Of a DNA stretch of 64,000 nucleotides, positions 1 to 20,820 are shown in pieces. A program made the position numbers and the translations under genes. This stretch comes from Alphaproteobacteria bacterium (lineage in GTDB: Bacteria; Pseudomonadota; Alphaproteobacteria; SP197), in the NCBI GenBank assembly GCA_965228895.1, contig OZ245842.1:416001-480000 (forward strand), read 5' to 3'. The notes under the pieces are model-generated. The model searched no databases and was not told where the DNA came from. It saw nothing but the letters and a program-made list of their open reading frames with translations. Positions within the stretch are counted from its first letter, which is position 1, and the number at the start of each line of letters is the position of its first letter.

Positions 1-535
1 GCTTTATGAGTTCGCCGCGCATGGCGACGCGCAGCTTGGCATCAAGGTTCGACAACGGCTCATCGAATAGAAAGACGGCGGGGTCTCTGACAATCGCACG
101 GCCAAGGGCGACGCGCTGTTGTTGTCCGCCCGACAGCGTCTTGGGTTTGCGCGACAGCTGCTCGGTCAGCCCCAACGTCGCGGCCACCTCATCGACCCGG
201 CGCTTGATCTCGTCTTGGGGCATCTTCCGAAGCTTGAGTGCAAAGCTCATGTTTTCGGCAACCGTCATATGCGGATAGAGCGCATAGGACTGGAACACCA
301 TCGCGACATCGCGATCCTTGGCGTGGACGTCTGCAACGTCTGTATCGCCGATGAAGATGCTGCCCGATGTGACCGACTCCAGTCCGGCGACCATTCTAAG
401 ACTGGTCGTTTTGCCGGAACCGGACGGACCGACCAGCACCACAAACTCGCCACTGCCAATTTCAAGATTGATCGAATCGACGGCGGTCACGTCTCCGAAA
501 CGCTTGGTCAGGTCTTTGAGGCGGACTTCGGTCAT
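1..535 (-). CDS. Carbohydrate ABC transporter ATP-binding protein (MalK/UgpC family), 3' end beyond window
   Basis: Manual reverse-strand translation from ATG at 535: [14 protein letters not shown]...GPSGSGKTT (Walker A)...[11 protein letters not shown]...[14 protein letters not shown]...[11 protein letters not shown]. Absent from the ORF track because it runs off the edge. Confidence 0.95.
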
Positions 536-693
536 GACGATATACCCAAATAAGCGAGCTCTACCGCGACGAACAGTGCCACGCCCCAGAACCGGACCTC
601 ACCGGGCGTCAGCCAATGGCTTCTGGTGTTCCAAACACCGATCAGGAGCTGAAAGGGTGCGCAGACCGCGGCGACAATGACATGCTCCAGCAT
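532..693 (-). CDS. Small hydrophobic membrane protein (53 aa), translationally coupled to the ABC ATPase
   Basis: [21 protein letters not shown]...[19 protein letters not shown] has two hydrophobic segments; its TGA overlaps the ATPase ATG (ATGA, 532-535). Confidence 0.55.
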
Positions 694-695
694 GG

Positions 696-977
696 CTATG
701 GTTCCGTGTCGCGGTGCTGAGGTTTGAGCCAGAAGAAAAACGGAATGCTGGCCAGCAACGGGAAGACGAACAGGCCGACGGGCACGACGACGAAAAACGA
801 CACGCCGAGGTCCAAAAGCAATCCGCAGCCGGCCACCAAAAGAAAGCAATACAAGATGGACCACAGAGACGCACGAAGATTGGGTCGATCGATCAGTGTG
901 GGCCTCAGCAGTCTTGTTAGACGTTTACGTATTCGATTGCCGATGGGAACAACGATGCCGGCAACATCGTGATTCAT
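696..977 (-). CDS. Small membrane protein (~93 aa), hypothetical
   Basis: C-terminal part LWSILYCFLLVAGCGLLLDLGVSFFVVVPVGLFVFPLLASIPFFFW is strongly hydrophobic; stop lies 2 nt before the next ATG; start codon uncertain. Confidence 0.5.
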   Translation of the reverse strand: MNHDVAGIVVPIGNRIRKRLTRLLRPTLIDRPNLRASLWSILYCFLLVAGCGLLLDLGVSFFVVVPVGLFVFPLLASIPFFFWLKPQHRDTEP

Positions 978-1083
978 CGACCTGCAAGGTTCACATACAA
1001 ATTTCCATCGTGCTAGAGTGAACTCAAGTCCAACCGGCAAGGTGAACGCTTGCCGCCAGAAGGACAGGGGGAGGGGCGCCCGC

Positions 1084-2442
1084 ATGGAGCGGTCCGAGCG
1101 GTATGTGAAACTTGACGAGGGCCTCGTCAGCCGCAGGATTTTCTTCGACCCCGATATCTATCAGGTAGAGCTGGAGCGTATCTTTGCACGCTCTTGGTTG
1201 TTCCTGGGTCATGAGTCACAGATCCCCGAACCCGGCGACTATATGACCGCCTATATGGGCGAAGACCCCGTGCTGGTATGTCGTGGCGATGATGGCAAGG
1301 TGAGGGCGTTCCTCAATTCATGCCGGCATCGCGGCATGAAGGTGTGTCGGGCCGACCGCGGCAACGCGCGTCAGTTCACCTGCAGCTTCCACGGTTGGAC
1401 CTATGGCAACATGGGCGAGCTGAAAGGCGTTCCCTTGGGCAAGGATGCTTACGGCGAACGTCTCGACAGGTCGGCTTGGGGACTTCTCGAAGTACCGAAA
1501 CTCACATCCTATGGCGGCTTGATCTTCGGCAACTGGGACGCCGGTGCTGAGAGTCTGGACGGCTTTCTTGGCGAGTTCCGCTGGTACCTCGACGTCATGA
1601 TCGAGCGCCAGATAGGCGGCATCGAGTTTGTACCGGGCGTACAGCGTTACTCGTTGAACGCCAACTGGAAGATCGCGAGCGAGAACTTTGCCGGCGATAC
1701 CTACCACCTGCCGTACTCGCACGGCTCGATGTACAAACTCGACATTCCCCCACTCAATCCGGCGAGCCCCGCCAACAATGACTTTCGTGGCGAGCAAAAC
1801 CGTTACTACAACATCGGCCTCGACAACGGCCACGGCATGACTGGCGTCGTCTTTGGCGGCACCCGCTACGACATCGATCGCGAATTGGCCAAGACCTACG
1901 GGCCGGAGGTCGTCGAGTATGTCGAAGAGTGCCAGCAGCGGTTGATCAAAGCCTTCCCCAAGAGACAGGCTGGCGTCTACGCGCTGTCGTTCAGCAACAT
2001 GTTCCCCAACCTGTCGTTTAACGACTTCAGCGCGCTCAGGCCCATCGGGTTCTATCTTTGGCTGCCCAAGGGCCCCGGTCGTATGGAGGCCTGGAATTGG
2101 TGCGGCATCGACCGTGATGCGCCACAGGTCATCAAGGATCAAGCGCGCCTCGACTTCTCACGCATTCAATCGGTCAGCGGGATCGCGGCACAGGACGACA
2201 CGGAGAACTTCGAACAGGTCACCGAGGCAACTCGTGGCGTCGTCGGCCAGCGTTTGGACTTCAACTACCAGATGAACGTGGGACAGGAGCTGCTGGAGGG
2301 TCCGGAAGACTGTCCCGGTCGCTTCGCACCGTTCATCTCTGAAACCAACCAACTGAACTTCTATGCTCACTGGGCGGAGCTTTTCGACTCCCCCTGGTCG
2401 GGACAATCCCGTGGCCGGTCTCGAGTTGCAGCACAGCATTGA
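1084..2442 (+). CDS. Aromatic ring-hydroxylating (Rieske) dioxygenase, alpha subunit
   Basis: Rieske motif CRHRG...CSFHGW; mononuclear Fe motif ENFAGDTYHLPYSH and QDDTEN; GGGGAGG RBS before ATG 1084. Confidence 0.95.
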   Translation: MERSERYVKLDEGLVSRRIFFDPDIYQVELERIFARSWLFLGHESQIPEPGDYMTAYMGEDPVLVCRGDDGKVRAFLNSCRHRGMKVCRADRGNARQFTCSFHGWTYGNMGELKGVPLGKDAYGERLDRSAWGLLEVPKLTSYGGLIFGNWDAGAESLDGFLGEFRWYLDVMIERQIGGIEFVPGVQRYSLNANWKIASENFAGDTYHLPYSHGSMYKLDIPPLNPASPANNDFRGEQNRYYNIGLDNGHGMTGVVFGGTRYDIDRELAKTYGPEVVEYVEECQQRLIKAFPKRQAGVYALSFSNMFPNLSFNDFSALRPIGFYLWLPKGPGRMEAWNWCGIDRDAPQVIKDQARLDFSRIQSVSGIAAQDDTENFEQVTEATRGVVGQRLDFNYQMNVGQELLEGPEDCPGRFAPFISETNQLNFYAHWAELFDSPWSGQSRGRSRVAAQH

Positions 2443-2908
2443 GCAGTTCCTCTATCGCGAAGTTCGCCTGTTGAGTGAGCTTCGCTACGAGGAATGGCTC
2501 GATCTGTTCACCGACGATGCGCGTTACTGGATGCCGGCACGCGAGACGGTGGCCGATCAGCCCGATGCGGTTGCCGGGGAAGGCGAGATGGCGTTCTTCG
2601 ACGACGACAAAGAGTTTCTGGCCATGCGTATCGAGCGACTGCAGTCATCGCTTGCCCATGCGGAACGCCCACCTTCGCGCATGCGCTACTTCATATCGAA
2701 TGTGGAAATTGACGAGGCTGATGACGGTGACCTCGACGTGCGGTGCAACCTGATGGTCTACCAGTCGCGCCTTGAGCGCACCGAGGTGAGTTACGTCGGC
2801 CGCCGCGAGGACCGGCTTCGCCGTGACGGCGATTCGTGGCGCATCGCGCTTCGCAAAGTGATTCTGGATCAAACACTGGTGCCGAGGACGATGTCGACAT
2901 TCTTTTGA
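2411..2908 (+). CDS. Ring-hydroxylating dioxygenase beta subunit
   Basis: IEQFLYREVRLL...WLDLFTDDARYWMP...RMRYFISNV...GRREDRLR...RKVILDQ pattern; follows the alpha subunit. Start is GTG 2411 or ATG 2363. Confidence 0.92.
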   Translation: MAGLELQHSIEQFLYREVRLLSELRYEEWLDLFTDDARYWMPARETVADQPDAVAGEGEMAFFDDDKEFLAMRIERLQSSLAHAERPPSRMRYFISNVEIDEADDGDLDVRCNLMVYQSRLERTEVSYVGRREDRLRRDGDSWRIALRKVILDQTLVPRTMSTFF

Positions 2909-2950
2909 GGCACCGGCCCTTTCCGGCCGTTGCGTGTACCGGAGAACACC

Positions 2951-5017
2951 ATGACCCGAGACCCACGTTTCGATGTTCTTTTCGAGCCCGTTCAGATCGG
3001 CCCGGTAACCGCACGCAACCGTTTCTTCCAGGTGCCGCACTGCAGCGGGATGGGTCACCTGCTGCCACGATCTGACGCTGCCATGCGTAGCATGAAGGCA
3101 GAAGGTGGGTGGTCGGTGGTCTGCACCGAGCAGTGCTCGTTTCACCCCCATGCGGAAGCAGCACCCTATCCGGAAACCAAGATGTGGGATCAGGACGACG
3201 TCATCCGCATGCGGCATTGGACGGACGCGGTTCATCACCATGGCGCGCTGGCCGGGATCGAACTGGTCAGCAACGCATCAGCGCTGCCCAACTGGTACAG
3301 CCGCGAAATTCCGCTGGGTCCCTCACACACGCCGGCAACCTATAGCCACGACCCCGTCCAGGCGCGCGCCATGGATCTCGATGACATCCGCGAGTTCCGC
3401 CGCTGGCACCGCGACGCCGCGCTACGGTCAAGGGATGCGGGTTTCGATCTGATCTATGTCTATTGCGGTCACGACATTGCCATGCCCATGGACTTCCTGA
3501 CCCGGCGCCGCAACCGCCGCACCGACGCGTACGGTGGCAGCCTGGAGAACCGGGTTCGGCTTTTGCGCGAGCTCATGGAAGACACGCTTGATGCGGTTGG
3601 CGGGGACATGGCCGTGGCGTTGCGTTTCGCTACGGACGAGCTGCTTGGTGACGACGGCGTCACCTGGGAGGACGAGGGCTGCAAGGTCATTGAGATGCTC
3701 GCCGACCTGCCCGACCTCTGGGACGTCAACGTCAGCGATTGGGCGCATGATTCCGCGACATCGCGTTTTAGTTCCGAAAGTTTCCAGGAGCCTTACATCG
3801 CGTTCGTCAAAGGCATGGTGAAAAAGCCGGTCGTGTGCGTCGGACGCTTTACGTCGCCGGATACCATGCTGTCGCTCATCAAGCGGGGTGTGTCCGACTT
3901 TGTCGGCTGCGCGCGTCCCTCCATCGCCGACCCGTTCATTCCGCAGAAGATCGACGAGGGTCGTCTTGACGACATCCGCGAGTGTATCGGCTGCAATATC
4001 TGCGTGACCGGCCAGCACATGAAGACGCCCATGCGTTGCACTCAGAACCCGACCGTGGGCGAGGAATGGCGCCGGGGCTGGCACCCGGAGAGGATCGAAG
4101 CCAAGGGGTCGGATGCATCGGTCCTGGTGGTCGGCGCCGGGCCGGCGGGCCTGGAGTGCGCGTTGGCGTTGGGGCAGCGCGGCTACCGGGTCGGCCTTGC
4201 CGAGGCACGACGCGAGCTTGGCGGACGTGTCAGCGATGAATCCGCGATGCCCGGTTTCTCCGAATGGGCGCGGGTGCGCGACTATCGGGCGTATCAGATC
4301 GAGAAGTTGCACGAGCGTGTCGAGGTGTTCCGCGAAAGCGAGATGTCCGCGGAGTCCGTTCTCGAGGCTGGCTATCAGCATGTCGCGGTGGCGACCGGTT
4401 CGCGCTGGCGCCAGGACGGCATCGGGCGCGCCAACACAGCCGGGCCGATACCGGGCAGCGACGCGGCGCACGTCGTGACGCCCAATGACATCTACGCCGG
4501 TGCGATCCCGGTCTCACCGGTCGTGGTGTTTGATGACGACCACTACTACATGGGCGGCGCGCTCGCCGAGAAACTCCACAACGACGGGCTCAAGGTGATC
4601 CTGGTGACGCCTGCGCCGGTCGTATCGTCCTGGGCGGAAGAAGCGCTCGAACAAGAGCATATACAGTCGCGGCTCGTAGAAATTGGGGTCGAGATTGTCA
4701 CCGGTCACAACCTCGCCGGAATAGGCGCCGACCACGTCGAGGTCGACGGAGTCTATGGCGAAGGCACGCGTCGGATCGATTGTGCGTCGGTTGTCATGGT
4801 GACATCGCGGTTGCCGAACGACGCTCTCTATTACGCGCTCAGGTCATCGCCTGACCGGCTTGGGGATGCTGGCATCCAGTCGGTCAAGCGTATCGGTGAT
4901 GCCCTGGGTCCGGGCATTATCGCTGCGGCCGTATGGAGCGGACACCGTTACGCCCGTGAGCTCGACGGTCCGCCGCCGGGTGATGTCCCGTTCAAGCGCG
5001 AACTCGTTGTCGTCTGA
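2951..5017 (+). CDS. Trimethylamine/dimethylamine/histamine dehydrogenase-family iron-sulfur flavoprotein
   Basis: N-terminus RDPRFDVLFEPVQIGPVTARNRFFQVPHC keeps the 6-S-cysteinyl-FMN Cys; 4Fe-4S motif ECIGCNIC...C; GAGPAG ADP-binding motif; GGAG RBS. Confidence 0.92.
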   Translation: MTRDPRFDVLFEPVQIGPVTARNRFFQVPHCSGMGHLLPRSDAAMRSMKAEGGWSVVCTEQCSFHPHAEAAPYPETKMWDQDDVIRMRHWTDAVHHHGALAGIELVSNASALPNWYSREIPLGPSHTPATYSHDPVQARAMDLDDIREFRRWHRDAALRSRDAGFDLIYVYCGHDIAMPMDFLTRRRNRRTDAYGGSLENRVRLLRELMEDTLDAVGGDMAVALRFATDELLGDDGVTWEDEGCKVIEMLADLPDLWDVNVSDWAHDSATSRFSSESFQEPYIAFVKGMVKKPVVCVGRFTSPDTMLSLIKRGVSDFVGCARPSIADPFIPQKIDEGRLDDIRECIGCNICVTGQHMKTPMRCTQNPTVGEEWRRGWHPERIEAKGSDASVLVVGAGPAGLECALALGQRGYRVGLAEARRELGGRVSDESAMPGFSEWARVRDYRAYQIEKLHERVEVFRESEMSAESVLEAGYQHVAVATGSRWRQDGIGRANTAGPIPGSDAAHVVTPNDIYAGAIPVSPVVVFDDDHYYMGGALAEKLHNDGLKVILVTPAPVVSSWAEEALEQEHIQSRLVEIGVEIVTGHNLAGIGADHVEVDGVYGEGTRRIDCASVVMVTSRLPNDALYYALRSSPDRLGDAGIQSVKRIGDALGPGIIAAAVWSGHRYARELDGPPPGDVPFKRELVVV

Positions 5018-5081
5018 CATCGAGAACGCCGGCAAGTGACCACGTGTAATTGTGCAAACGAACAACAAGGGAGGAAGTGAT

Positions 5082-6476
5082 ATGATTGGTTTGAGTGTGA
5101 AGCGACTTAGGAACGGCTTGTTGGCCAGTGTCCTTGGTGCTGGTCTTGCTGGCGCATTTGTGCCGGACAGGGCGGCCGCATGGACGCTTGAAGAAGCAGC
5201 GAAACCTTACGCGGGCACCGAGGTGATCGGGATTTGCGACGGCTATTCCCCATGTCTCGCCTATACCGAGATGGCCAAGAAGTTCGAGGAACTGACGGGC
5301 ATCAAGGTAATTCTTGAAGTCGCCGACCTCGAGGCCGTGTGGCGCCAGGTGTTGGCCGATCAGCTGACAGGCGGCCAGTACTACGACATCTTTCCTGCCG
5401 CCAACAACCAGACCGCGGCCTTTGCGGCACCGGGGTTCACCACCGATCTCAACCAGTTCATGAACGATCCGGCCCTGCGCGATCCCAGCGTCAAGGTCGA
5501 GGACTTCGTGCAGGCTCACTTTGAAATTTCCGGCCACTATGAGGACGAGCTGGTTGCTGTCCCCTATCACTACCTGCCGCCCTATGCGGCCTATCGGACG
5601 AGCATCGCCAACGATCCGACGGAACAGGCGAACTTCAAGGCTGAGTACGGCTATGACATGCCGTTGCCGCCCACGACCTGGGAGCAATTCCGTGATCTCT
5701 CCGAGTTCTTCACCCGTGAAGCAGGCGAGACGCTGGCCGGCGAAACGCTAGAGACCAACTTCTACGGTACGGTCGCCGCGTTCAAACGACACCTCACGGT
5801 GTTCTATGACTACGAACGCATCCTGCTCGGCATGGGCGGCGAATACGTGGATGCGGACTTCAACGTGAAGATCGACGACGGCGATGTCGGCGTCAAAGCG
5901 CTCGAATACATGCTCGATCTCAGGCAGTTCGCACCGCCCGGACACACCGAAGCGACGTGGGACACCGAGTACGCCGAGATGTGCAACGGCAACGTTTTCA
6001 TGATCTTTACCTGGGGCGACACGACGCCTTATCTGGAGATCCCCGGTGACTGTCCGGCGTCGGCCGGCGACATGACCTATTTCGTCCACCCCGGCACGAA
6101 TGTCACGGGTGCGTACGGTCAGTCGTGGATCATCCCCAGCAGCGCCCAGCACAAGGAAGCCGCCTGGCTGTTTGTTCAGTGGTTGCTGACCCAGGACGTG
6201 CAGAACGAGTGTCTGCCTTTGGGTTGCCTCGCCGTCAGAAGCGACGTTCTAGGCGATCCGCGCTGGGAGGATGAGTCGTGGGAGAACAGTCAGCGCGAAG
6301 CCATTCACATCTGGCTCGACGAGAACGGCAAGCTCTACGAACTGCCGAACACGCCGAACTGGTTTGTCTGGCAGGACATCATCATCGAGGAGCTAAGCGC
6401 GGCCGGTGCCGATCAGCAGGACGCCGAGACGACGATCGCCAATATCGCGTCACGCATGCGCGAGGCCGCCGAGTAG
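5082..6476 (+). CDS. ABC transporter substrate-binding protein (sugar-type, CUT1 family)
   Basis: Signal peptide ending AAAW; FKAEYGYDMPLPPTTWEQ motif; AAWLFVQWL; GGAGG RBS. Confidence 0.88.
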   Translation: MIGLSVKRLRNGLLASVLGAGLAGAFVPDRAAAWTLEEAAKPYAGTEVIGICDGYSPCLAYTEMAKKFEELTGIKVILEVADLEAVWRQVLADQLTGGQYYDIFPAANNQTAAFAAPGFTTDLNQFMNDPALRDPSVKVEDFVQAHFEISGHYEDELVAVPYHYLPPYAAYRTSIANDPTEQANFKAEYGYDMPLPPTTWEQFRDLSEFFTREAGETLAGETLETNFYGTVAAFKRHLTVFYDYERILLGMGGEYVDADFNVKIDDGDVGVKALEYMLDLRQFAPPGHTEATWDTEYAEMCNGNVFMIFTWGDTTPYLEIPGDCPASAGDMTYFVHPGTNVTGAYGQSWIIPSSAQHKEAAWLFVQWLLTQDVQNECLPLGCLAVRSDVLGDPRWEDESWENSQREAIHIWLDENGKLYELPNTPNWFVWQDIIIEELSAAGADQQDAETTIANIASRMREAAE

Positions 6477-6602
6477 CCTGCTCGGTGCTGACAAGAGAGT
6501 GGCCCTGTGCGTGGCGCAGGGTCACCTTTTTGTCGACCAACGGTCCATGTCATTTGGGTGATGGTCGTTGGCGATCGTTCGCGGTGACGGGAGGGAAGAT
6601 TG

Positions 6603-6908
6603 ATGTATGAGATCGATCCGGATCGCACGGACTTGATCGAGGAGTTTCGGCGAAGTCCGGGTGGTCCCTACAGTCCGGAACTAGCGTTGTTGGTCAATCG
6701 TCTCCGTCTCAGTCCTTTGGGCGAACGCTACATCCTGGTCTGCACCAGGCGCGGAACGGAGTGGGCCGTCGGCATGATGCCGACACAGCGAGGTCAAGCC
6801 GTCGAACTTCTGAACGGTCTGACCTTCAACGACTACTACGACGCGGCGCGCGAGGTGTTCCGATTGCGCTGGCAGGCCGTTACCGGCAAGGAACTCTCGT
6901 ATGCCTGA
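6603..6908 (+). CDS. dmfA1: N,N-dimethylformamidase-like small (alpha) subunit
   Basis: ~100 aa with EEFRRSPGGPYSPELALLVNRLR...EVFRLRW pattern, directly upstream of the large subunit. Confidence 0.8.
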   Translation: MYEIDPDRTDLIEEFRRSPGGPYSPELALLVNRLRLSPLGERYILVCTRRGTEWAVGMMPTQRGQAVELLNGLTFNDYYDAAREVFRLRWQAVTGKELSYA

Positions 6909-6935
6909 TTTGATTCGCCGGAGAGAGGCGGAGAC

Positions 6936-9161
6936 ATGAAGAAGATTGTCGGCTACTCGAACGAATGGAGCGTCGCGCCCGGCGATACGCTCGAGGTCAA
7001 GGTCAGCACCTATGGCCCGCAACACTACAGGGCCGATCTCGTACGCGTCATCTGCGGCGACGACGAACCCGATCACGGCATCTATCGCGAAGAGGAGATC
7101 ACGGCGGCGTTCGCCGGCGAATACACGGGCCGCACCCAGATCATGGCGGCGGGGTCGTACGTCGTGGTGCCCGCAGCACCGTCATTGCAGGGTCTGACAA
7201 GCTTTACTGTGCAGGCCTGGATCTTCCCGACCACGCCGTCCAATGGCGAGCAGGGGCTGATCGCCCACGGTACGACTGGCACCAGTGTTGGCTTTGCCTT
7301 GGTTATCGATAAGAACGGCGCACTCGCCTTACGAACTGGCGACGGTGCCGGCGGTGTCTGGGAAACCACGATGGGTGTGGCGCTCGCGGCGCGGCGCTGG
7401 CATCTGGTGGCGGCGGCCTTCGATGGGGAACGCGGGGAGGTTCTGTTACATCAGGTCTCTTCCGGATCTGTCGTCGAGGCTGGCAGTTCGATCTGTTCAA
7501 GCGGCAAGGCGGCGTTTTCGCCGGTCGGCGATGACGATCAGCCGCTTTTGATGGCCGCACTTCCTTCTGACGCCCCTTCAGGCGTGTCGTCGCACTTCAA
7601 CGGAAAAATCGACCGGCCCCGGATTACAGGGCGCGCTCTGTCGTCAGACGAGATTACGACCCTGGCGTGGGACGCCGCGCCGCACGAGCGTGAGTCCGCG
7701 CTTGTCGCGGGTTGGGACTTCTCGCTTGATATTGGTTGCCAAAGCATTAGCGATGTTGGCTTCAACGGCCTTCACGGCCATACGGTCAACCTGCCATCGC
7801 GTGGCGTAAAGGGGTTCAACTGGTCGGGCAGGGAACAGAACTGGCGCCACGCGCCCGATGAATACGGTGCCATACACTTCCACGACGACGATCACTATGA
7901 CGCCGGCTGGGAAACCGACTTCACCTATGTCGTCCCGGACGATTTGAAGAGCGGTGTTTATGCCGCGCGCCTCGCTGCCGAGGATGACGAATGGTACATC
8001 ACGTTCTTTGTCCGGCCGCCCCGTGGCACGGCGACGTCCAGGTTGGCCTTCCTGGCCTCGACCGCGACCTACATGGCGTATTCGAATTATCGCTGGCAGA
8101 TGCACGAACACTACGCGGAGGTCACCGAGAGCTACTGGACGACCCTGGACAAGGGCGACGCTTTCCTTCAGGAACACCCAGAGTTCGGCCTGTCGACCTA
8201 TGACCATCATTTCGATGGCAGCGGCGTGCGTTATGCCTCGCGGCTGCGCCCCGTTCTCAACATGGCGCCCAAGACACCACTGTGGAGCTTCAATCCCGAC
8301 ACACACATCCTGGGCTGGCTCGAAGAGAAGGGGATCGACTACGACGTCATTACCGACGAGGACCTGCACCACGAAGGCGTCGGCTTGTTGGAACCCTATC
8401 GCGCCGTCGTGACCGGGACACACCCGGAATACTACACGACCCCCATGTGGGAGGGGTTGCGCGGGTATCTTTCGCGTGGCGGTCGGCTCGCTTATCTGGG
8501 TGGCAACGGTTTCATCTGGCGCTGCGCGTTTTCCTCCGAACTGCCGGGCGTCCTGGAATTGCGACGGGCGGAAGACGGCATCCGCTACCGCGACGAGGAG
8601 CCCGGCGAATACTACCTGGAGTTCACCGGCGAATACGGCGGTCTATGGCGCCGCCTGGGCATGGCGCCGCAGGCGCTTGTCGGCGTCGGTACGGTGGCGG
8701 TGGGCTTCGATGTCTCCGGGTACTATCGGCGCACGCCCGAAAGCTTCGATTCCCGGGCGGCCTTCATCTTCGATGGCATCGGCGACGACGAGATAATCGG
8801 CGATTTCGGCATCTTGGGTGGCGGCGCCAGCGGGTCGGAAATCGATGCCGTTGATCCGCTGCTCGGCACGCCTGTTCATACGTTGGTCGTGGCAAGCTCG
8901 GAGGGACATTCGGCCAACACGTGGCTGGTGCCCGACGAGACCGGATTTCATCACAGCGCCATGGACGGCCTGCAGAACCCACGCATCAAGGCCGACATGA
9001 CCTTCTTTGAGACGCCCGGCGGTGGCGCTGTCTTCTCGGTCGGCTCGATCGCCTGGGGCGCCAGCCTGCCGCACAACGGTTACGACAATAACGTCGCGCG
9101 GGTATCGGAGAATGTGCTCCGCCGGTTCCTCGAGCCGGAGCCCTTCGCGATATCCGAGTAG
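6936..9161 (+). CDS. dmfA2: N,N-dimethylformamidase-like large (beta) subunit
   Basis: 741 aa with LamG-like insert; TYMAYSN, STYDHHFDG, GTHPEYYT, YLGGNGFIW, GSEID and VFSVGSIAW motifs characteristic of DMFase beta. Confidence 0.9.
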   Translation: MKKIVGYSNEWSVAPGDTLEVKVSTYGPQHYRADLVRVICGDDEPDHGIYREEEITAAFAGEYTGRTQIMAAGSYVVVPAAPSLQGLTSFTVQAWIFPTTPSNGEQGLIAHGTTGTSVGFALVIDKNGALALRTGDGAGGVWETTMGVALAARRWHLVAAAFDGERGEVLLHQVSSGSVVEAGSSICSSGKAAFSPVGDDDQPLLMAALPSDAPSGVSSHFNGKIDRPRITGRALSSDEITTLAWDAAPHERESALVAGWDFSLDIGCQSISDVGFNGLHGHTVNLPSRGVKGFNWSGREQNWRHAPDEYGAIHFHDDDHYDAGWETDFTYVVPDDLKSGVYAARLAAEDDEWYITFFVRPPRGTATSRLAFLASTATYMAYSNYRWQMHEHYAEVTESYWTTLDKGDAFLQEHPEFGLSTYDHHFDGSGVRYASRLRPVLNMAPKTPLWSFNPDTHILGWLEEKGIDYDVITDEDLHHEGVGLLEPYRAVVTGTHPEYYTTPMWEGLRGYLSRGGRLAYLGGNGFIWRCAFSSELPGVLELRRAEDGIRYRDEEPGEYYLEFTGEYGGLWRRLGMAPQALVGVGTVAVGFDVSGYYRRTPESFDSRAAFIFDGIGDDEIIGDFGILGGGASGSEIDAVDPLLGTPVHTLVVASSEGHSANTWLVPDETGFHHSAMDGLQNPRIKADMTFFETPGGGAVFSVGSIAWGASLPHNGYDNNVARVSENVLRRFLEPEPFAISE

Positions 9162-9274
9162 ACATGGTCCCTTGGGGCCCACGATCGACCCCCGCGATGT
9201 TGCTGTCGTCGGACGCCTCTACTTTGACGAGGACGATGACATGAAGCCAACGTCACATCGACACAGGCGTCAGC

Positions 9275-10519
9275 TCAATCGTCGGTCGAACGTATGGTGC
9301 GAGGCAGCTTCGATAAGACCTCCAGCCCTTCTTCGGTGACCAGGAACGTCTCGATAAAGTTGCAGCCGGTGCCGCCCGGCCAATCCTCCCAGATGTCGTA
9401 CTGGTTTTCATAGTTGAAGACGAGCCCGGGTTGGACCGTCAGTTTGTCGGGCGTCGGACCGAACGTTTCCTCGTTCCAGTGGATCCAGCTGGCGCCCGTC
9501 CAATCGGGTGGGAACGAGATGCCGAGCGGGTAGCCGCCAATCCACCAAGCCTTATCGGTCAGACCGACCTTGTCGATGTAAGCGTGCGCGACCTCGTCAA
9601 CACGCGGCAGCGGGTCGCCGAGCTTGACCTCCCCCAGGATGGCATCAATCGAGCCCGCCGACTTCTCCATGACATCAAGCCAGCGGTCATCCGCCTTGCC
9701 GACGGACAGCGTTCGGCACATGTTGACGTGATAGCGGTGGAGCGATGCACAAAAGTCGAAGTGAACGAGGTCGCCCTGTTTCACCTTGCGATGGGTCGGC
9801 GCGGAATGGTGCGTTCCTGAGCGGACGCCAGAGGCGACCATGGTGTGAATGGTCGGATAGTTGCAGCCTTGGCTCATCAGGCTCGCCATCAGCACGCCTT
9901 CGATCTGGGTCTCCGTCATGCCCGGACGCATCTCGGCCCGCGCGGCCTCAAGCGCCGTATCCGCCATCGCCGCGGCTCGGCGCACAACGGCCATCTCGCG
10001 CGGTGACTTATAGATGCGCAACATCTCGACCAGGAGTGAGGCGTCGACCACCTTGGCACCCTTGTCGCGCAACTTCCCGGCCAGTGTCTCGACCACCTCA
10101 GTGGCGGGTCCCCAACCCCAGAACTGAAGCCCGATCGTACCGCCGGCCAGACCGCGCGCGGCGACCTCGTCGGCGATGATGTCGAAGTCGTCGGCGCCGG
10201 CCATCGGGTCATGGTCGAAGATCACGGCATCGCGTATCTCGGGCACGAGCGAGACAATCGTCGTGTGCGCCGCAGCGTCAAAGAACAGCGTGTCGTCGCT
10301 GTCGGCCCGGATCAGCAAATTGGTCGAATTACGAAGATGATTCCAGATCATGTCATAGCCGGTCAGCCAGTTGATGTCCGGCAACCGGCACAACAACAGC
10401 ACATCGACACCGGCTTTCTTCATAGCATCGCGAACCTGCTTGCGCCGCGCGGCGTATTCCTCCGGCGGGAACGGTTGCTCCCAATCGATCTGGTCGCGCA
10501 GGTATGTCTTTAGCTCCAT
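9275..10519 (-). CDS. M24-fold hydrolase (creatinase/ectoine hydrolase DoeA-like)
   Basis: FPPEEYAARR...INWLTGY, RIYKSPREM, THHSAP, YHVNMCRT, ETFLVTEEGLEVLS; several aminopeptidase-P metal ligands are replaced. Confidence 0.85.
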   Translation of the reverse strand: MELKTYLRDQIDWEQPFPPEEYAARRKQVRDAMKKAGVDVLLLCRLPDINWLTGYDMIWNHLRNSTNLLIRADSDDTLFFDAAAHTTIVSLVPEIRDAVIFDHDPMAGADDFDIIADEVAARGLAGGTIGLQFWGWGPATEVVETLAGKLRDKGAKVVDASLLVEMLRIYKSPREMAVVRRAAAMADTALEAARAEMRPGMTETQIEGVLMASLMSQGCNYPTIHTMVASGVRSGTHHSAPTHRKVKQGDLVHFDFCASLHRYHVNMCRTLSVGKADDRWLDVMEKSAGSIDAILGEVKLGDPLPRVDEVAHAYIDKVGLTDKAWWIGGYPLGISFPPDWTGASWIHWNEETFGPTPDKLTVQPGLVFNYENQYDIWEDWPGGTGCNFIETFLVTEEGLEVLSKLPRTIRSTDD

Positions 10520-10566
10520 CTGGTCCCCCATATCCTGGCGTCGCCTGTTGCGACCTTTGCGATCAC

Positions 10567-10929
10567 TCAGGCCGCGATCATGTAGAATTTGCGCAGCGTC
10601 TTCGTGATTTCCCACGTGCACGGTGTTCCCCTGGGGATGAAGAAGGTATCGCCGGACTCATAAGTTTCGGCTTTGCCGTCAGCGTCCGTCACCGTAACCG
10701 AACCGCCCAAAACCGTCATCATCTCGTGGACCGGATAGGCGTCGATCTCTTCCTTACACGGCGCGCATTCCCAAACGCCTGTGAGGATGCTCTCGTCATC
10801 GGACGTATAGGCGTGGGAGATGAGCTCGGTCTGATCGCCGGTCGTGAACGCGTCCGGGCTTGTCAGGTGGGACGGCACCATGCCGCCGGCGTGACCTTCG
10901 GAAATCAGTCGTGCGGGTTTGTTGATCAT
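10567..10929 (-). CDS. Cupin (DUF861/EutQ-like)
   Basis: TGVWECAP...EMMTVLGGSVTV...GDTFFIPRG...W...LRKFY. Confidence 0.88.
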   Translation of the reverse strand: MINKPARLISEGHAGGMVPSHLTSPDAFTTGDQTELISHAYTSDDESILTGVWECAPCKEEIDAYPVHEMMTVLGGSVTVTDADGKAETYESGDTFFIPRGTPCTWEITKTLRKFYMIAA

Positions 10930-11144
10930 GACGGTCTCCCGTGTCCCAAGTTTCATATGCGATCGTGTCATCATGATGGACCGTCACCATGCGGGCCTCA
11001 AGGCTGGGTGCCGCCAGGTAGCTTCACTTTGTTGCAGTGCAACCCGACTCGTTTGTCTGTCGGGCCGTCGGGCTCAATGGAACGCATGCATCAGCTACCC
11101 GTTGGATAGGTCACGGATGATGTCATGACACGCGCTATGCGTAC

Positions 11145-11172
11145 TGTTTCCATAATGCAGATTATGGCGCCG
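11145..11172. other. dif-like (XerC/XerD-type) recombination site 1
   Basis: TGTTTCCATAA-TGCAGA-TTATGGCGCCG: 11+6+11 layout with the CATAA/TTATG inner dyad of dif; intergenic. Confidence 0.7.
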
Positions 11173-11405
11173 TGGTGTGTAAGCGCAGAATTAAGACGTC
11201 AGTCCTGAGCAAAGCTAAGATGATGGTGCTCCCTCCCGTTGGCAGGGACTGATGGGGAATAGTGCCGACCGCGACTTTGGTGCCCTTGAGCACTCGCCGC
11301 TGAATCGTACAAAAGCTTGGGGCAATGCCGATCGCCAATCGCAGAAGCGGCGACTAATCCCGCAAGCGATCTTGTCATGCGACTTTCCTCGACAATCATG
11401 CAATT

Positions 11406-11424
11406 TGTGAATTAAATATTCACA
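11406..11424. promoter_or_regulatory. Palindromic operator TGTGAAT-N5-ATTCACA (candidate IclR site)
   Basis: TGTGAATTAAATATTCACA about 30 nt upstream of the DUF35 gene; same dyad at 13039. Confidence 0.65.
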
Positions 11425-11455
11425 CGTTGAGTTGATGTCGGGCTCAGGAGGGCAG

Positions 11456-11863
11456 ATGGTCGGGTTGGCGCGGAACGGCCCTGAGGAAAAATTCAAGGCC
11501 TATCTCCGAGAAGGACAGTTCCTGGTCCAGAGGTCCCGACGGTCCGGGCGCATCGTCTTCTATCCACGTGTGGCGGCGCCGGAGACCGGCGAACGTGATC
11601 TCGAATGGACCCCATGCACCGGGTTCGGCACCGTTTACTCGACGACTGTGGTGCGCCGCCGCGCCGAAAAGGGCGGTGATTACAACGTCGCGCTGATCGA
11701 CCTCGATGACGGTTTCCGCATGTTGAGCCGCGTCGAGGCGGTCCCGCCTTCGGAGGTCCAAATCGGCCAGCGCGTGCGGGCGCGGATCGCTGAGATTGAT
11801 GGCGAGCCCGCGATCGTTTTCGATCCGCTGGATGGCGCTGAGGGAGATGATCATGCGCGGTGA
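11456..11863 (+). CDS. DUF35-family OB-fold protein (acyl-CoA-binding partner of thiolase-fold enzymes)
   Basis: FYPR...W...GTVYSTTVV...YNVALIDLDDGFRMLSRV...IGQRV; zinc-ribbon cysteines not evident; AGGAGG RBS. Confidence 0.88.
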   Translation: MVGLARNGPEEKFKAYLREGQFLVQRSRRSGRIVFYPRVAAPETGERDLEWTPCTGFGTVYSTTVVRRRAEKGGDYNVALIDLDDGFRMLSRVEAVPPSEVQIGQRVRARIAEIDGEPAIVFDPLDGAEGDDHAR

Positions 11864-12992
11864 GGCGGCGATTGTCGGCGTGGGGGTTGCCGGCCTTGGC
11901 GAAGCGCCCGGCCAAAGTGCGATGGAGATTCTTGCTGGCGCTGCTCTGGCTGCCCTCGATGACGCCGGGCTCCGGCCGTCCGACGTCGACGGGCTTTTTG
12001 TCAGCACCACGGCGCATTTCATGCCGACGGCGAGTGCCGCCGAGTATCTCGGCATTCGGCCGCGCTACTCCGATACCAACATGACAGGCGGATCCTCGTT
12101 CGTGGCTCATTTGCTGACCGCGGCGATGGCGCTATCGACCGGGGCCTGTGATGTGGCACTGATCGCTTATGGCAGCAACCAGCGCACATCACTGGGCCGA
12201 TTGCAGATGAACAACGAGCCGTTGCCCCTCGAAACCATATATGGACCGCGCTATCCCATCAGCGGCTACGCGATGATGGCGGCGCGTCACATGCACGAGT
12301 ACGGCACGACCCGCGAGCAACTTGCCGAAGTCGCGGTTGCCGCTCGCGGCTGGGCTGCTCTCAACCCGGAGGCCTTTTGTCGCGATCCGCTGAGCGTCGA
12401 CCAGGTGCTTGAGTCACGCATGATCTCCGATCCGCTGACGCTGTTGGATTGTTGTCTGGTCACCGATGGCGGGGGAGCCCTGGTCCTGGTCCGACGCGAA
12501 CGCGCCGCGGATTTGACGGGCTCTCCAATCCACCTGCTGGGGGCCGGGCTGGCTCACGAGCACCGGCAGATGTCGCAAATGCCCGACCTGACGTCGACGC
12601 TTGCCCGCGATTCAGGCGCGCGCGCCTTCGCCATGGCGCGCTTGGACCGAAGTGAGATCGATCTGCTGCAGCTCTACGACGGCTTCACCATCAACACGAT
12701 CATGTTTCTTGAAGACTTGGGTTTCTGCCCAAAGGGTGAGGGTGGCGGTTTTGTCAGTGGCGGGCGGATTGCGCCAGGCGGCGAGGTCGCGCTCAACACC
12801 AATGGCGGCGGGCTCTCGTGCACCCATCCCGGCATGTACGGCATCTTTCTTATCGTTGAGGCAGTTCGTCAGCTGCGCGGTGTGGCTGGTGAGCGCCAAG
12901 TGAACGACCTTGAAACCGCGCTCGTTCACGGTGTCGGCGGCATGATGTCGACCCACGTGACCGCCGTCCTCGGTACCGACGCCACCATCTGA
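11847..12992 (+). CDS. SCP-x/Ltp2-type thiolase-fold protein
   Basis: AIVGVG, DCCLVTDGGGA, LYDGFT, LEDLGFC, NTNGGGLS, EAVRQLRG; GGSSF at the usual nucleophilic Cys position. Confidence 0.9.
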   Translation: MIMRGEAAIVGVGVAGLGEAPGQSAMEILAGAALAALDDAGLRPSDVDGLFVSTTAHFMPTASAAEYLGIRPRYSDTNMTGGSSFVAHLLTAAMALSTGACDVALIAYGSNQRTSLGRLQMNNEPLPLETIYGPRYPISGYAMMAARHMHEYGTTREQLAEVAVAARGWAALNPEAFCRDPLSVDQVLESRMISDPLTLLDCCLVTDGGGALVLVRRERAADLTGSPIHLLGAGLAHEHRQMSQMPDLTSTLARDSGARAFAMARLDRSEIDLLQLYDGFTINTIMFLEDLGFCPKGEGGGFVSGGRIAPGGEVALNTNGGGLSCTHPGMYGIFLIVEAVRQLRGVAGERQVNDLETALVHGVGGMMSTHVTAVLGTDATI

Positions 12993-13038
12993 CGCCGGCC
13001 AACGTTTGTGACCAGGTGCCTTGCCATATGTCAAAAGA

Positions 13039-13057
13039 TGTGAATATTATATTCACA
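13039..13057. promoter_or_regulatory. Palindromic operator TGTGAAT-N5-ATTCACA (candidate IclR site)
   Basis: TGTGAATATTATATTCACA 20 nt upstream of the binding-protein ATG. Confidence 0.65.
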
Positions 13058-13077
13058 CTTAGCTTTGGGAGGCTGCC

Positions 13078-14679
13078 ATGAAAGACCGTGACGTCATTTT
13101 GAACGCGTTCAAATCCGCCAAATTGTCGCGCCGCGATGCGGGAGCTGCGCTCATGGGTGCGGGCCTAAGCGCCGTGGCTGCCGGGTCGCTGATCGAACGG
13201 GCTATAGGCGAGGCGGTGGCTCAGGAGCCGAAAACAGGCGGGACGTTGCGCGTCGCATCGACGGATTCCCACGCGGGCGACACCATCGACCCGGCGAAGA
13301 TCATTCAGAATATCGACATCATCCGCTCGGGCATCATCTATGAGACGCTCGTCGACTACGTGCCCGGGACCGGCCTTGTGCCCTCGCTCGCGACCTCGTG
13401 GGAGTCGAACAACGACGCCACCGAATGGCGCTTCGTGTTGCGGGACGGCGTCGAGTTCCACAACGGTAAGACAATGACGGCCAGCGACGTCGTTGCCTCG
13501 TTCAACCGTCACCTCGATCCCGACATTGCATCCCCGGCGAACGCCTATCTGGGAGACGTCGAGTCCTTCGCCGCCGACGGCGACGGCACACTCGTTGTGC
13601 GCATGAAGCAGCCCAACGCGGACATCCCTTACCTGTTTTCAGAGTATCACTTCACGGCGCAGCCCGAAGGCGACAACGATTACACAACGGGGGCGGTAGG
13701 AACCGGCGCCTGGCAGCTTCAGGACTTCGAGCCCGGTATCGTCGCAACATTTGTGCGCAATCCGAACTACTGGAAGAGCGGGTTGCCCTACATCGACGAG
13801 ATCGAAACCTTCGGCATCCCGGACAACGCTTCGCGGGTTAACGCGCTGCTTGCCGGTGAAGCCGATATGATCGTGCAGCTCGACCCCCAGCTCATCGGCT
13901 CCGTCGAAGCTGACGCGAACGGTCGCGTCCTAAGCCAGCCCGGCGGCGCGCATCCGACCTATCCCATGTTGGCAAACACGGCGCCCTACAGTGACAACAA
14001 CGTGCGCCTTGCGCTGAAGCATGCGGTCGACAGGGAACGTATGCTGGAGCTTGCGTTCGGTGGCTTCGGCGTCGTCGGACGCGATCATCCGATACCGCAG
14101 CACGACCCCTTCTTCGCGGCGGACGTCGAGCCGCTCGCGCATGATCCCGACAAGGTCGCCTACTACCTCAAGCAGGCGGGCATGGAAGGCGCCAGCTTCG
14201 AGCTCGTTGCCTCCGACGCCAACTTCGGTGGCGCCAATGCCAGCGTCGTCATGGCGGAGTTGATGAACGAGTCGGGCGCGAACGTCACCGTCAAGAAGGT
14301 GCCGTCGGACGGCTACTGGAGCGCGATCTGGATGCAGGCCCCGTGGTGCGGATCGTCGTGGTATGGACGACCCACCGCTGACCTCATGCTCTCCATCGCC
14401 TACATCACGGGTGGCGCGTGGAACGAGAGCTTCTGGTCGAACGAGAAGTTCGACAGTCTCGTGCTCGAGGCCCGCAAGGCGACCGACACGGCCCTGCGGA
14501 CAGAACTCTACCGAGAGTGCCAGATCCTGATGCGCGACGAAGGCTCCACCGTTACGCCCGTCTTCACGAATTGGATGGATGGTTACTCCGCGCGCGTGCG
14601 CAACTTCAACGGCCACCCTTATGGATTCCTTGGCTGGATGAAGTGGAGCGAAGTCTGGCTCGCCGACGCTTCAGCCTAG
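13078..14679 (+). CDS. Peptide/nickel-family (family 5) ABC substrate-binding protein, Tat-exported
   Basis: SRRDAG twin-arginine leader; LATSWE...LRDGVEFHNGK...DVVASF; GTGAW; RNPNYW; VRLALKHAVDR. Confidence 0.92.
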   Translation: MKDRDVILNAFKSAKLSRRDAGAALMGAGLSAVAAGSLIERAIGEAVAQEPKTGGTLRVASTDSHAGDTIDPAKIIQNIDIIRSGIIYETLVDYVPGTGLVPSLATSWESNNDATEWRFVLRDGVEFHNGKTMTASDVVASFNRHLDPDIASPANAYLGDVESFAADGDGTLVVRMKQPNADIPYLFSEYHFTAQPEGDNDYTTGAVGTGAWQLQDFEPGIVATFVRNPNYWKSGLPYIDEIETFGIPDNASRVNALLAGEADMIVQLDPQLIGSVEADANGRVLSQPGGAHPTYPMLANTAPYSDNNVRLALKHAVDRERMLELAFGGFGVVGRDHPIPQHDPFFAADVEPLAHDPDKVAYYLKQAGMEGASFELVASDANFGGANASVVMAELMNESGANVTVKKVPSDGYWSAIWMQAPWCGSSWYGRPTADLMLSIAYITGGAWNESFWSNEKFDSLVLEARKATDTALRTELYRECQILMRDEGSTVTPVFTNWMDGYSARVRNFNGHPYGFLGWMKWSEVWLADASA

Positions 14680-14730
14680 CTTGCGTGTACGCGTCATCAC
14701 CCAAAGATCACCGGTACTGAGGAGAGTGTT

Positions 14731-15534
14731 TTGGAGAACAAGTTCATCGTAAAGAAGGACGAACAGATCGCATGGATCATCTTCGACAGACCGCAGAAGC
14801 TGAACGCCATGCGCAGCGAGGGGTGGCGCGAGTTTGGCCGTCTCCTGTCGGAGCTCTGCGACGACCGAACGCTGCGATGCCTGATTATTGCGGGCGAGGG
14901 CAAGGCGTTCCAGGCCGGCCATGACATCGGACAGATGCTCGAGCACATCGAGGACATGAAGACCGGCGCGTACACGGTTGCCGACCTGCACGAGGGCCAG
15001 AAGGCGCTACAAGAGACAACACGCCTGATCCGCAAGGCCCGATTTCCCGTTATTGCCGCGGTACACGGCTTCGCCGTCGGCGGCGGATGCGAGGTCACGC
15101 TGGCGTGTGATCTCGTCGTCGCCGGCAAATCCACGCAGATGGGATTCCCTGAGGCCAAGGTCGGGGCGACCATTACCAATGGCGGCACTTGGTTGCTGCC
15201 GCGCAAGGTGGGGCTCGCCAAGGCTCGCGAGCTCGCCTTCATGGGTGAGATCGTCGACGCCGAGGAGGCGCTGAAAATCGGCCTCGTCAACCGAGTCGTA
15301 CCCGACGACGATGTGCGGACAGAGGCCGAAAGTATGGCCCGGAAGATCTGCACGATGTCACCGATGTCGGTCCAGTTGCATAAGACCATGCTCGATCGTG
15401 GCCAGGATGCCTCGCTCGAGACCATGCTGAACTTCGAGACTGAATGCCTCGTCGTTGCCTCGATCATGAAGGACCACGTCGAGGGCGTGCACGCGTTCCA
15501 CGAGCGGCGCGATCCCGTCTTCAACGGCGACTGA
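14731..15534 (+). CDS. Enoyl-CoA hydratase/isomerase (crotonase)
   Basis: DRPQKLNAM, FQAGHDI, AVGGGCE...ACD, FPEAKVG (both catalytic Glu present); TTG start after GAGGAG. Confidence 0.93.
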   Translation: MENKFIVKKDEQIAWIIFDRPQKLNAMRSEGWREFGRLLSELCDDRTLRCLIIAGEGKAFQAGHDIGQMLEHIEDMKTGAYTVADLHEGQKALQETTRLIRKARFPVIAAVHGFAVGGGCEVTLACDLVVAGKSTQMGFPEAKVGATITNGGTWLLPRKVGLAKARELAFMGEIVDAEEALKIGLVNRVVPDDDVRTEAESMARKICTMSPMSVQLHKTMLDRGQDASLETMLNFETECLVVASIMKDHVEGVHAFHERRDPVFNGD

Positions 15535-15547
15535 GCGCCTGACGCCC

Positions 15548-18024: not shown

Positions 18025-18038
18025 CCGGAGGTGAAGCC

Positions 18039-18929: not shown

Positions 18930-18957
18930 AGCAGCCCCCGAAACCGGAGACCTCGCC

Positions 18958-19809: not shown

Positions 19810-19877
19810 CCGGATGAGATTGATGCAGAGTTTCATGGAGATGTTGTTGACTAAGAATAGTCGCGCCGAGGTGTTTC

Positions 19878-20717: not shown

Positions 20718-20820
20718 CGACGTCCCGTCTCATCAAGGTAAGGACTTGTGCACGCCCAGCGTGGTGCGGCTTCACAGATGTGATTTTGATCATCTTTGAC
20801 CCGATGCACAGGACACCAGC

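Follow-up and report, generated by a model that had tools for sequence, protein, structure and literature searches.

A rare combination of Rieske oxygenase, amine dehydrogenase and dimethylformamidase-like genes in an alphaproteobacterial genome

Do six neighbouring genes encoding a two-subunit Rieske oxygenase, a flavoprotein amine dehydrogenase, a solute-binding protein (SBP) and a dimethylformamidase (DMFase)-like pair form one catabolic pathway, or do they lie side by side as separate modules? The genes occupy positions 1084-9161 of the stretch of DNA analysed here (the window, 64,000 nt in all), which corresponds to G000:C1:416001-480000, G000 being the source genome with a single 5.53-Mb contig; coordinates given as L001 belong to the locus of the same genome that reaches upstream of the window. 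A sequence-only reading of the window had taken the genes as a single operon. By sequence comparison all parts belong to known families and the six-gene combination is a rare mosaic, not a conserved operon, hence the locus offers a lead rather than a defined new system. With about even confidence we see in the locus a mosaic whose catabolic modules are separately mobile, the host being an uncultured marine alphaproteobacterium. The six genes and the element that divides them are as follows.

1084-2442, + strand: Rieske oxygenase alpha subunit, 452 aa (Pfam Rieske, Ring_hydroxyl_A)
2363-2908, + strand: Rieske oxygenase beta subunit, 181 aa from the ATG at 2363, an internal start being possible (Ring_hydroxyl_B, E 3.4e-40)
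2930-5017, + strand: FMN/[4Fe-4S] amine dehydrogenase of the trimethylamine dehydrogenase (TMADH) family, 695 aa (Oxidored_FMN, Pyr_redox_2)
5082-6476, + strand: periplasmic SBP, 464 aa from the ATG at 5082, with an alternative GTG start at 5052 (SBP_bac_1, SBP_bac_8)
6499-6525, + strand: terminator-like hairpin separating the binding-protein gene from the DMFase pair (hairpin scan)
6603-6908, + strand: DMFase small (alpha, DmfA1-like) subunit, 101 aa (predicted fold, synteny, fusions)
6936-9161, + strand: DMFase-like large (beta, DmfA2-like) subunit, 741 aa, a predicted mononuclear-Fe amidase (Laminin_G_3, DMFA2_C)

Six long open reading frames on the + strand fill 1084-9161, and as their family and structure matches are so strong the six genes are far beyond chance. 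The family labels of the sequence-only reading were correct, as confirmed by Pfam and PDB sequence matches. Its description of six co-directional, closely spaced genes holds for the genes themselves, their common strand and four tight junctions (an overlap, then 21, 34 and 27 nt), but not for the fifth junction (6476 to 6603), which measures 126 nt and contains a hairpin.

This hairpin at 6499-6525 has 12 pairs, eight of them G-C, and a loop of 3 nt, and is followed by CTTTTTG. The intergenic sequence 6477-6599 folds with a z of -4.27, none of 200 shuffles being as stable. A GC-rich hairpin is also found 3' of the SBP stop codon in all eight other loci with an SBP orthologue, and that of genome G012 aligns with 6499-6525, the differences in its arms preserving the pairing. 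An Rfam scan of positions 1-12000 gave no riboswitch; a sub-threshold miRNA-hairpin match (30.9 bits against a threshold of 92) fell on the terminator hairpin. In the genus labelled g4 the small and large DMFase genes follow a divergently oriented gene, and so the pair has its own start there. From these features it seems probable that the locus consists of two transcription units split at the hairpin. The single operon was thus not confirmed, as the terminator-like hairpin sets the DMFase pair apart from the four genes before it.

We compared the gene order in two sets of loci. On the Rieske side these were 31 loci with alpha relatives 79-87% identical, nearly all from metagenome-assembled genomes (MAGs) of uncultured Alphaproteobacteria and one from a 'Candidatus Poriferihabitaceae'; on the DMFase side they were 20 loci with large subunits 67-80% identical (tblastn). 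The full six-gene order was found in one of the 31 Rieske-orthologue loci and in one of the 20 DMFase-orthologue loci (L021 of G012); the two six-gene matches, L021 and L052, are probably one genome. The sequence-only reading had named a lack of conservation elsewhere as something that would refute it, and this largely applies. Beside the Rieske alpha gene we detected the beta subunit in 28 of 31 loci, the flavoprotein orthologue (at least 80% identity) in 14 (10 of the 21 loci that extend 7 kb or more downstream), the SBP in 8 (6 of the 21), and the small and large DMFase pair in a single locus (1 of the 21). The SBP/DMFase junction is homologous in G000 and G012. Further, a contig from another study is 96.7% identical over 274-12000, with 390 differences, 7 gaps and the same gene order. 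The Rieske orthologues occur in G000 and in 7 of 15 g4 genomes, while none was found in the two other genomes of G000's own genus (95% and 97% complete), hence their distribution is patchy. An AMP-ligase gene, meant to serve as an identity standard for judging horizontal transfer, was rejected, as it is paralogous and only 59-60% identical even within the genus.

While the six-gene order is barely conserved elsewhere, one part of the combination does recur, namely the link between the DMFase and the TMADH family. Of the 20 DMFase-orthologue loci (20 kb each), 10 include a TMADH-family gene, in at least four gene orders and from two flavoprotein orthogroups. Among five complete or near-complete g4 genomes, 4 of 35 DMFase-family genes are at most 10 kb from a TMADH-family gene, and all four are orthologues of the window type. 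This repeated pairing of one DMFase orthogroup with amine dehydrogenases may be new. The gene that accompanies the DMFase pair most constantly is however Cupin_3; in 10 of the 20 loci a homologue of at least 69% identity converges on the large-subunit gene, and in 5 more a weaker one (31-39%) lies nearby.

It is possible, although we find it somewhat doubtful, that the two units are chance neighbours, i.e. that the DMFase pair and the cupin gene landed by an unrelated Rieske/flavoprotein/SBP unit in a dense catabolic island and that the units act on different substrates. The rarity of the six-gene order in both sets of loci, the hairpin between the units and the steadier companionship of Cupin_3 than of the flavoprotein all favour this explanation, as does a PhyH-family gene that replaces the DMFase pair 3' of the first four genes in six loci. 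On the other hand, TMADH-family genes recur near the DMFase orthogroup of the window in non-homologous arrangements and not near other paralogue clades, and the junction is kept across two genera and a diverged strain.

A conserved array was also seen in L026-L030 of genus g4 (about 1.1-14.4 kb), where a TMADH-family gene, a methyltransferase, a PhyH dioxygenase and an alpha-only Rieske oxygenase are followed by an S15/CocE-type hydrolase, the small and large DMFase genes, Cupin_3, SBP_bac_8 and a second PhyH gene.

The 101-aa protein encoded just upstream of the large subunit had no match in the Pfam copy scanned, and a PDB sequence search gave chance matches only (E 0.34 or worse). Its start, listed as 6600/6603, was fixed at the ATG at 6603 (MYEIDP...) by orthologues, 18 of which were used to build an AlphaFold2 model with a pLDDT of 90.8. 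The model matched chain B of the DMFase structure 6lvb with a TM of 0.73, an rmsd of 2.1 A over 92 columns and a probability of 1.00, whereas all other folds reached a TM of at most 0.36. Moreover, the gene lies directly 5' of the large-subunit gene in 20 of 20 orthologous loci. The fold match to 6lvb_B, this adjacency and the existence of natural fusions together identify the small protein as the DMFase small subunit. All of its 263 detectable relatives are named 'hypothetical protein' at most in the sources searched; the precomputed Pfam accession on these relatives is PF26354. The assignment of this family of about 100 aa as DMFase small subunits, along with the natural small-large fusions, may be new.

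In-frame fusions of the small and large subunits were found in the G000 paralogue P7 (G000:C1:575249-577759, - strand, an 877-aa open frame inside which the fused reading begins), in L024 (13409-15925, 839 aa) and in L039 (9076-11637, 854 aa). At G000:C1:1671347-1676109 (- strand) one small-subunit gene is followed by two tandem large-subunit genes (P2 and P3), and similar tandems occur in G012, G016, G017, G019 and G023.

The large subunit matches PF20254 (DMFA2_C) with 303.9 bits (cut-off 27, E 2.7e-90) in addition to Laminin_G_3, and the DMFase structure 6lvb with 520.2 bits over residues 4-737. According to PMC7686228, Y399, Y440 and E521 are the iron ligands of DMFase, H519, N547 and E657 are catalytic, and F693 narrows the acyl pocket; activity is described there as good on dimethylformamide (DMF), N-methylformamide, N-ethylformamide and formamide, slight on dimethylacetamide, and absent on acetamide and benzamide. 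In the window protein Y399, Y440, H519, E521, N547, E657 and F693 correspond to Y382, Y422, H496, E498, N524, E635 and F671. The window pair thus displays all sequence features of the family, i.e. DMFA2_C, the iron and catalytic residues, and a small-subunit partner upstream, and the large subunit looks catalytically complete, with a predicted 2-Tyr-1-Glu iron site.

Like the DMFase of Paracoccus sp. DMF (6lvb; PMC7686228), the window system consists of a small and a large gene with the same large-subunit domains and the same small-subunit fold. The large subunit is however a distant relative (520 bits), the small subunit has no sequence match, no LuxR-type DmfR gene adjoins the window pair, and the pair, one of seven paralogues, comes from an uncultured marine bacterium and not from a solvent degrader. 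An N-acetyl-(R)-beta-phenylalanine acylase (8huy, 486.6 bits), another member of the family, shares the aligned catalytic residues with the window protein, which shows that the family is able to hydrolyse N-acyl derivatives of aromatic amines. The 8huy entry lists the large chain only (A, B), with no small subunit on record.

All six catalytic residues are kept in each of the seven DMFase large subunits of G000. The comparison of acyl pockets covers the F693 position only, where the seven paralogues have F, F, H, S, N, H and H, so that the Phe of the window protein is common to one other; the acetyl-accepting acylase 8huy has Leu here. From the retained Phe and the formyl preference of DMFase we weakly infer that the window amidase might act on formyl (or very small acyl) amides, a specificity that we propose tentatively. 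The genomes of this lineage carry 7-14 DMFase-family matches each, while a 2021 preprint reports DMFase in 4.5% of complete genomes, no genome having more than 9 copies (10.1101/2021.03.18.435917); this expansion of paralogues, with as many as 14 matches in a genome where 9 was the highest number reported, may also be new. It should be noted that paralogue P6 was flagged with '1 TGA', which proved to be its own stop codon at the end of the alignment. In the library searched no paper was found on the N-acetyl-(R)-beta-phenylalanine acylase or on 6l6j, and none joining 'dimethylformamidase' and 'sponge'.

The flavoprotein (PF00724, 201 bits) was aligned over its full length with the histamine dehydrogenases of Nocardioides simplex (3k30) and Rhizobium (6de6) and with TMADH (1djn). 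Its PDB scores are 783.8 bits for 3k30, 742 for 6de6, 682.8 for 6l6j and 577.7 for TMADH. It shares with histamine dehydrogenase and TMADH the C-terminal nucleotide-binding domain, and its FMN-linking Cys (VPHC) and four cluster Cys (CIGCNIC...C) align with those of 3k30 and 1djn; the OYE-type FMN domain, the 6-S-cysteinyl FMN Cys and the [4Fe-4S] Cys motif of the family are hence all present in the sequence. The substrate pocket is another matter. At Y60, W264 and W355 of TMADH, which we take to be the aromatic bowl holding the methylammonium head, the flavoprotein has Q, W and Q, so that one of the three residues is kept and two differ, and the bowl is not retained. The W355 position of TMADH is that of Asp358 of histamine dehydrogenase in the alignment, and of Q65, E79, W267 and D358, presumably the pocket residues of histamine dehydrogenase in 3k30 and 6de6, the first three are kept while Gln replaces D358. 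As two of three bowl residues differ and histamine dehydrogenase is the closer match, the substrate is more probably an arylalkyl or heteroarylalkyl amine than a methylamine. We accordingly describe the flavoprotein as a predicted amine dehydrogenase that is not a methylamine specialist, a point on which the sequence-only reading is not supported. G000 has 15 TMADH/histamine-dehydrogenase paralogues at at least 50% identity, with varied residues at the pocket positions.

These pocket residues also bear on the plainest pathway for such an enzyme pair, a true DMFase with a dimethylamine dehydrogenase acting on DMF or N-methylformamide. This would resemble pathway I of DMF degradation, which 10.1101/2021.03.18.435917 describes as an amidase followed by a TMADH-family dehydrogenase, and the window pair has its small subunit, all DMFase catalytic residues and the F693 constriction. 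We nevertheless regard this pathway as exceedingly unlikely here, as Y60 and W355 of the TMADH bowl are both replaced by Q and the flavoprotein scores 784 bits with histamine dehydrogenase and 578 with TMADH. Further, a Paracoccus dmfA1A2 paralogue with 34%/40% identity to the pAMI2 proteins is unlinked to DMF use (PMC4543880), and the presence of 7-14 paralogues per genome among uncultured marine MAGs speaks for natural substrates.

The Rieske alpha gene, preceded by GGGGGAGGGG as the ribosome-binding site 5' of the ATG at 1084, encodes a protein with the motifs CxH-x17-CxxH and D-x2-H-x4-H. Its PDB matches are 2b1x (Rhodococcus naphthalene dioxygenase, 319 bits) and HcaE 8k0a (316 bits), while the cut-off of the HcaE equivalog model was not reached (362.2 bits against 830). 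Similarly, the beta subunit stayed below the HcaF equivalog cut-off (130.9 bits against 230) and exceeded that of PRK10069 (170 bits over 145). With Rieske and 2-His-1-carboxylate motifs and a beta subunit present, the pair is assigned from its sequence to the alpha3beta3 type, nearest the naphthalene, biphenyl and phenylpropionate dioxygenases. The beta subunit is the only one in G000, where a whole-genome search matched PF00866 once and the Rieske domain 53 times. In subunits and in Rieske and mononuclear-iron motifs the pair is alike to HcaEF and the naphthalene and biphenyl dioxygenases, but ferredoxin, reductase and dihydrodiol dehydrogenase genes do not adjoin it, and it is instead partnered with an amine dehydrogenase and a binding protein. 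No dedicated ferredoxin, reductase or cis-dihydrodiol dehydrogenase was found among the genes from L001:13963 to window position 21939, nor a ring-cleavage dioxygenase or an aldehyde dehydrogenase in the locus (the genes around 1084-9161). All 53 Rieske-domain matches in G000 sit in open frames of at least 177 aa, hence no obvious Rieske ferredoxin of about 105 aa is seen there.

Alpha3beta3 Rieske dioxygenases of this type yield cis-dihydrodiols and not N-formyl ring-cleavage products. This bears on the scheme of the sequence-only reading, in which one operon encodes a Rieske oxygenation giving an N-formyl amine, which the DMFase homologue deformylates and the flavoprotein oxidises. Three enzyme classes are indeed adjacent and co-directional, and there is a precedent in the hybrid nicotine pathway cluster of Agrobacterium tumefaciens S33, which combines a TMADH-family enzyme (Pno), a ring-cleaving dioxygenase whose ring opening gives an N-formyl amide, a deformylase and polyamine-type ABC binding proteins (PMC5500553). 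In that cluster, however, the ring is opened by 2,5-dihydroxypyridine dioxygenase, the deformylase Nfo is not of the DMFase family and a Rieske alpha/beta pair is not among the enzymes described, unlike in the window. An N-formyl product needs a ring-cleaving dioxygenase, which the locus lacks, the hairpin splits the cluster and the combination is barely conserved. We therefore consider the scheme very unlikely, and its formation of an N-formyl amine by ring oxygenation does not fit the Rieske type at hand.

What, then, might the mosaic do? In our proposal module 1 (1084-6476 with the permeases and ATPase upstream) would be an uptake and oxidation unit that ends at the conserved hairpin. Its binding protein and ABC transporter would import an amine, the flavoprotein would oxidise it to an aldehyde with release of ammonia or a small amine, and the sole alpha/beta Rieske dioxygenase of G000 would hydroxylate a ring, aromatic or heteroaromatic, that this compound carries. 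Module 2 (6603-9161) would be a self-contained DmfA1/DmfA2-type enzyme that acts on an N-substituted amide and takes off its formyl (or another very small acyl) group. If the modules are joined, module 2 would convert an N-formyl amine to amine and formate, and the flavoprotein would turn the amine into an aldehyde, along with ring attack by the oxygenase. The flow would then follow the logic of DMF pathway I on a natural arylalkyl-type amide, that pathway being an amidase followed by a TMADH-family dehydrogenase (10.1101/2021.03.18.435917). Compared with the earlier scheme the order is reversed, the amidase being placed first. Functional coupling of the two modules is a possibility to which we give somewhat less than even weight. 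Likewise, an aromatic amine substrate is a tentative suggestion from sequence, as the Rieske enzyme falls in the aromatic ring-dihydroxylating alpha3beta3 group and the nearest solved relatives of the flavoprotein use an imidazolyl-ethylamine.

The dedicated binding protein of the sequence-only reading did hold up, as the SBP and its ABC partners belong to the unit. SBP orthologues of 80-88% identity lie 3' of the flavoprotein in 8 of the 31 Rieske-orthologue loci, and the permeases and the ATPase were found beside the Rieske alpha gene in 8 and 9 of the 31, respectively.

Several observations weigh against the modular reading and the coupling proposed within it. G000 (5.5 Mb) contains 53 Rieske-domain matches, 15 TMADH-family paralogues and 7 DMFase large subunits, as well as some 19 M24 genes and about 14 OYE/FadH-like flavoproteins that are more distantly related; eight Rieske genes fall within the 65 kb preceding the window (C1:352893-418439). 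As these families are so dense, chance adjacency is much likelier than in an ordinary genome, which adds to the case for chance neighbours. By rough arithmetic, two of six G000 DMFase loci have a TMADH-family gene at most 10 kb away against about 0.4 expected, and two of six a Rieske gene against about 1.4 expected; the Rieske-DMFase association is not above chance, and that of flavoprotein and DMFase is suggestive only. The genomes behind the synteny counts are related to one another and not independent. Transcription may read through the hairpin at 6499-6525. Other Rieske orthologue pairs (79-87%) adjoin an imine-reductase-like gene with a short-chain dehydrogenase/reductase and a glutathione S-transferase, or a 2x[4Fe-4S] ferredoxin with an aldehyde:ferredoxin oxidoreductase. 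The drawn pathway is incomplete, as the locus is without an aldehyde dehydrogenase, dihydrodiol dehydrogenase, ring-cleavage enzyme, ferredoxin and reductase. The role of F693 in acyl selectivity is the interpretation of one paper plus one comparison. Finally, matches of the binding protein, the best in the PDB being a 'sugar ABC transporter' at 48 bits and those from an Atlas search generic SBP clusters only, give by sequence no clue to its ligand.

In L043, L056 and L064 (about 11.3-14.6 kb) the Rieske alpha and beta genes are followed by the 2x[4Fe-4S] ferredoxin and the aldehyde:ferredoxin oxidoreductase (AFOR_N, AFOR_C), the latter being an unusual partner for an oxygen-dependent enzyme. 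These orthologous pairs, and the lack of an electron-transfer partner in the locus, leave room for a more speculative idea, which we consider unlikely. The Rieske oxygenase could receive its electrons directly from its own substrate, whose amine (or aldehyde) group would be oxidised with transfer through the [4Fe-4S] cluster of the dehydrogenase, in a substrate-driven manner with no NAD(P)H reductase, and/or the DMFase paralogues of the lineage could be natural deformylases or deacylases of N-formyl or N-acyl amines.

DMFase is known from bacteria degrading a man-made solvent, yet the family is widespread, and to our knowledge no natural substrate has been established for it. The DMFase paralogues, with catalytic residues intact in all seven of G000, a varied pocket position and one orthogroup near TMADH-family genes, are candidates for enzymes with natural formamide or acylamine substrates. 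If the natural deformylase or deacylase reading is true, the locus would be the first natural route from amide to amine to aldehyde for the DMFase family.

The following features surround the six genes.

2-535, - strand: 5' part of an ABC transporter ATPase of the MalK/TOBE type, the rest lying upstream of the window (Pfam ABC_tran, OB_MalK, TOBE_2)
L001:15684-17434, + strand: two ABC permease genes just past the ATPase, outside the window (Pfam BPD_transp_1)
990-1019, + strand: weak sigma-70-like promoter match 5' of the Rieske alpha gene (9/12 hexamer matches and a TG extension)
9275-10621, - strand: M24 creatinase/ectoine-hydrolase-like metallohydrolase, convergent with the DMFase pair (Pfam Peptidase_M24, Creatinase_N)
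10567-10974, - strand: Cupin_3 (EutQ-like cupin) protein (Pfam Cupin_3)

The promoter scan gave 2 sites in 11 kb against 2.8 expected, so 990-1019 is a consensus match only. A minus-strand open reading frame at 696-1085 was rejected as a gene, as it had no tblastn match in the 20 DMFase-orthologue or 31 Rieske-orthologue loci. The M24 gene scored 130 bits with the DoeA models, under their cut-off of 613, and 96 bits with DoeA in the PDB, and it is missing from the corresponding place in G012. The PDB relatives of the Cupin_3 protein are all uncharacterised; a second copy, 88.7% identical over 124 residues, is located at G000:C1:937013-937384.

Directly upstream of the window, L001:9109-15468 carries a TetR/BetI-type regulator, an alpha-only Rieske oxygenase, a double GFA (formaldehyde-activating) protein, a methyltransferase and an amidase-signature enzyme, and looks like a separate N-demethylation cluster. 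On the other side, window positions 11432-21939 hold a further catabolic cluster with a ChsH2-type OB-fold protein, a thiolase-like protein, SBP_bac_5, an enoyl-CoA hydratase and an AMP-ligase, as well as two PhyH dioxygenases, Amidohydro_2, an IclR regulator and a zinc alcohol dehydrogenase.

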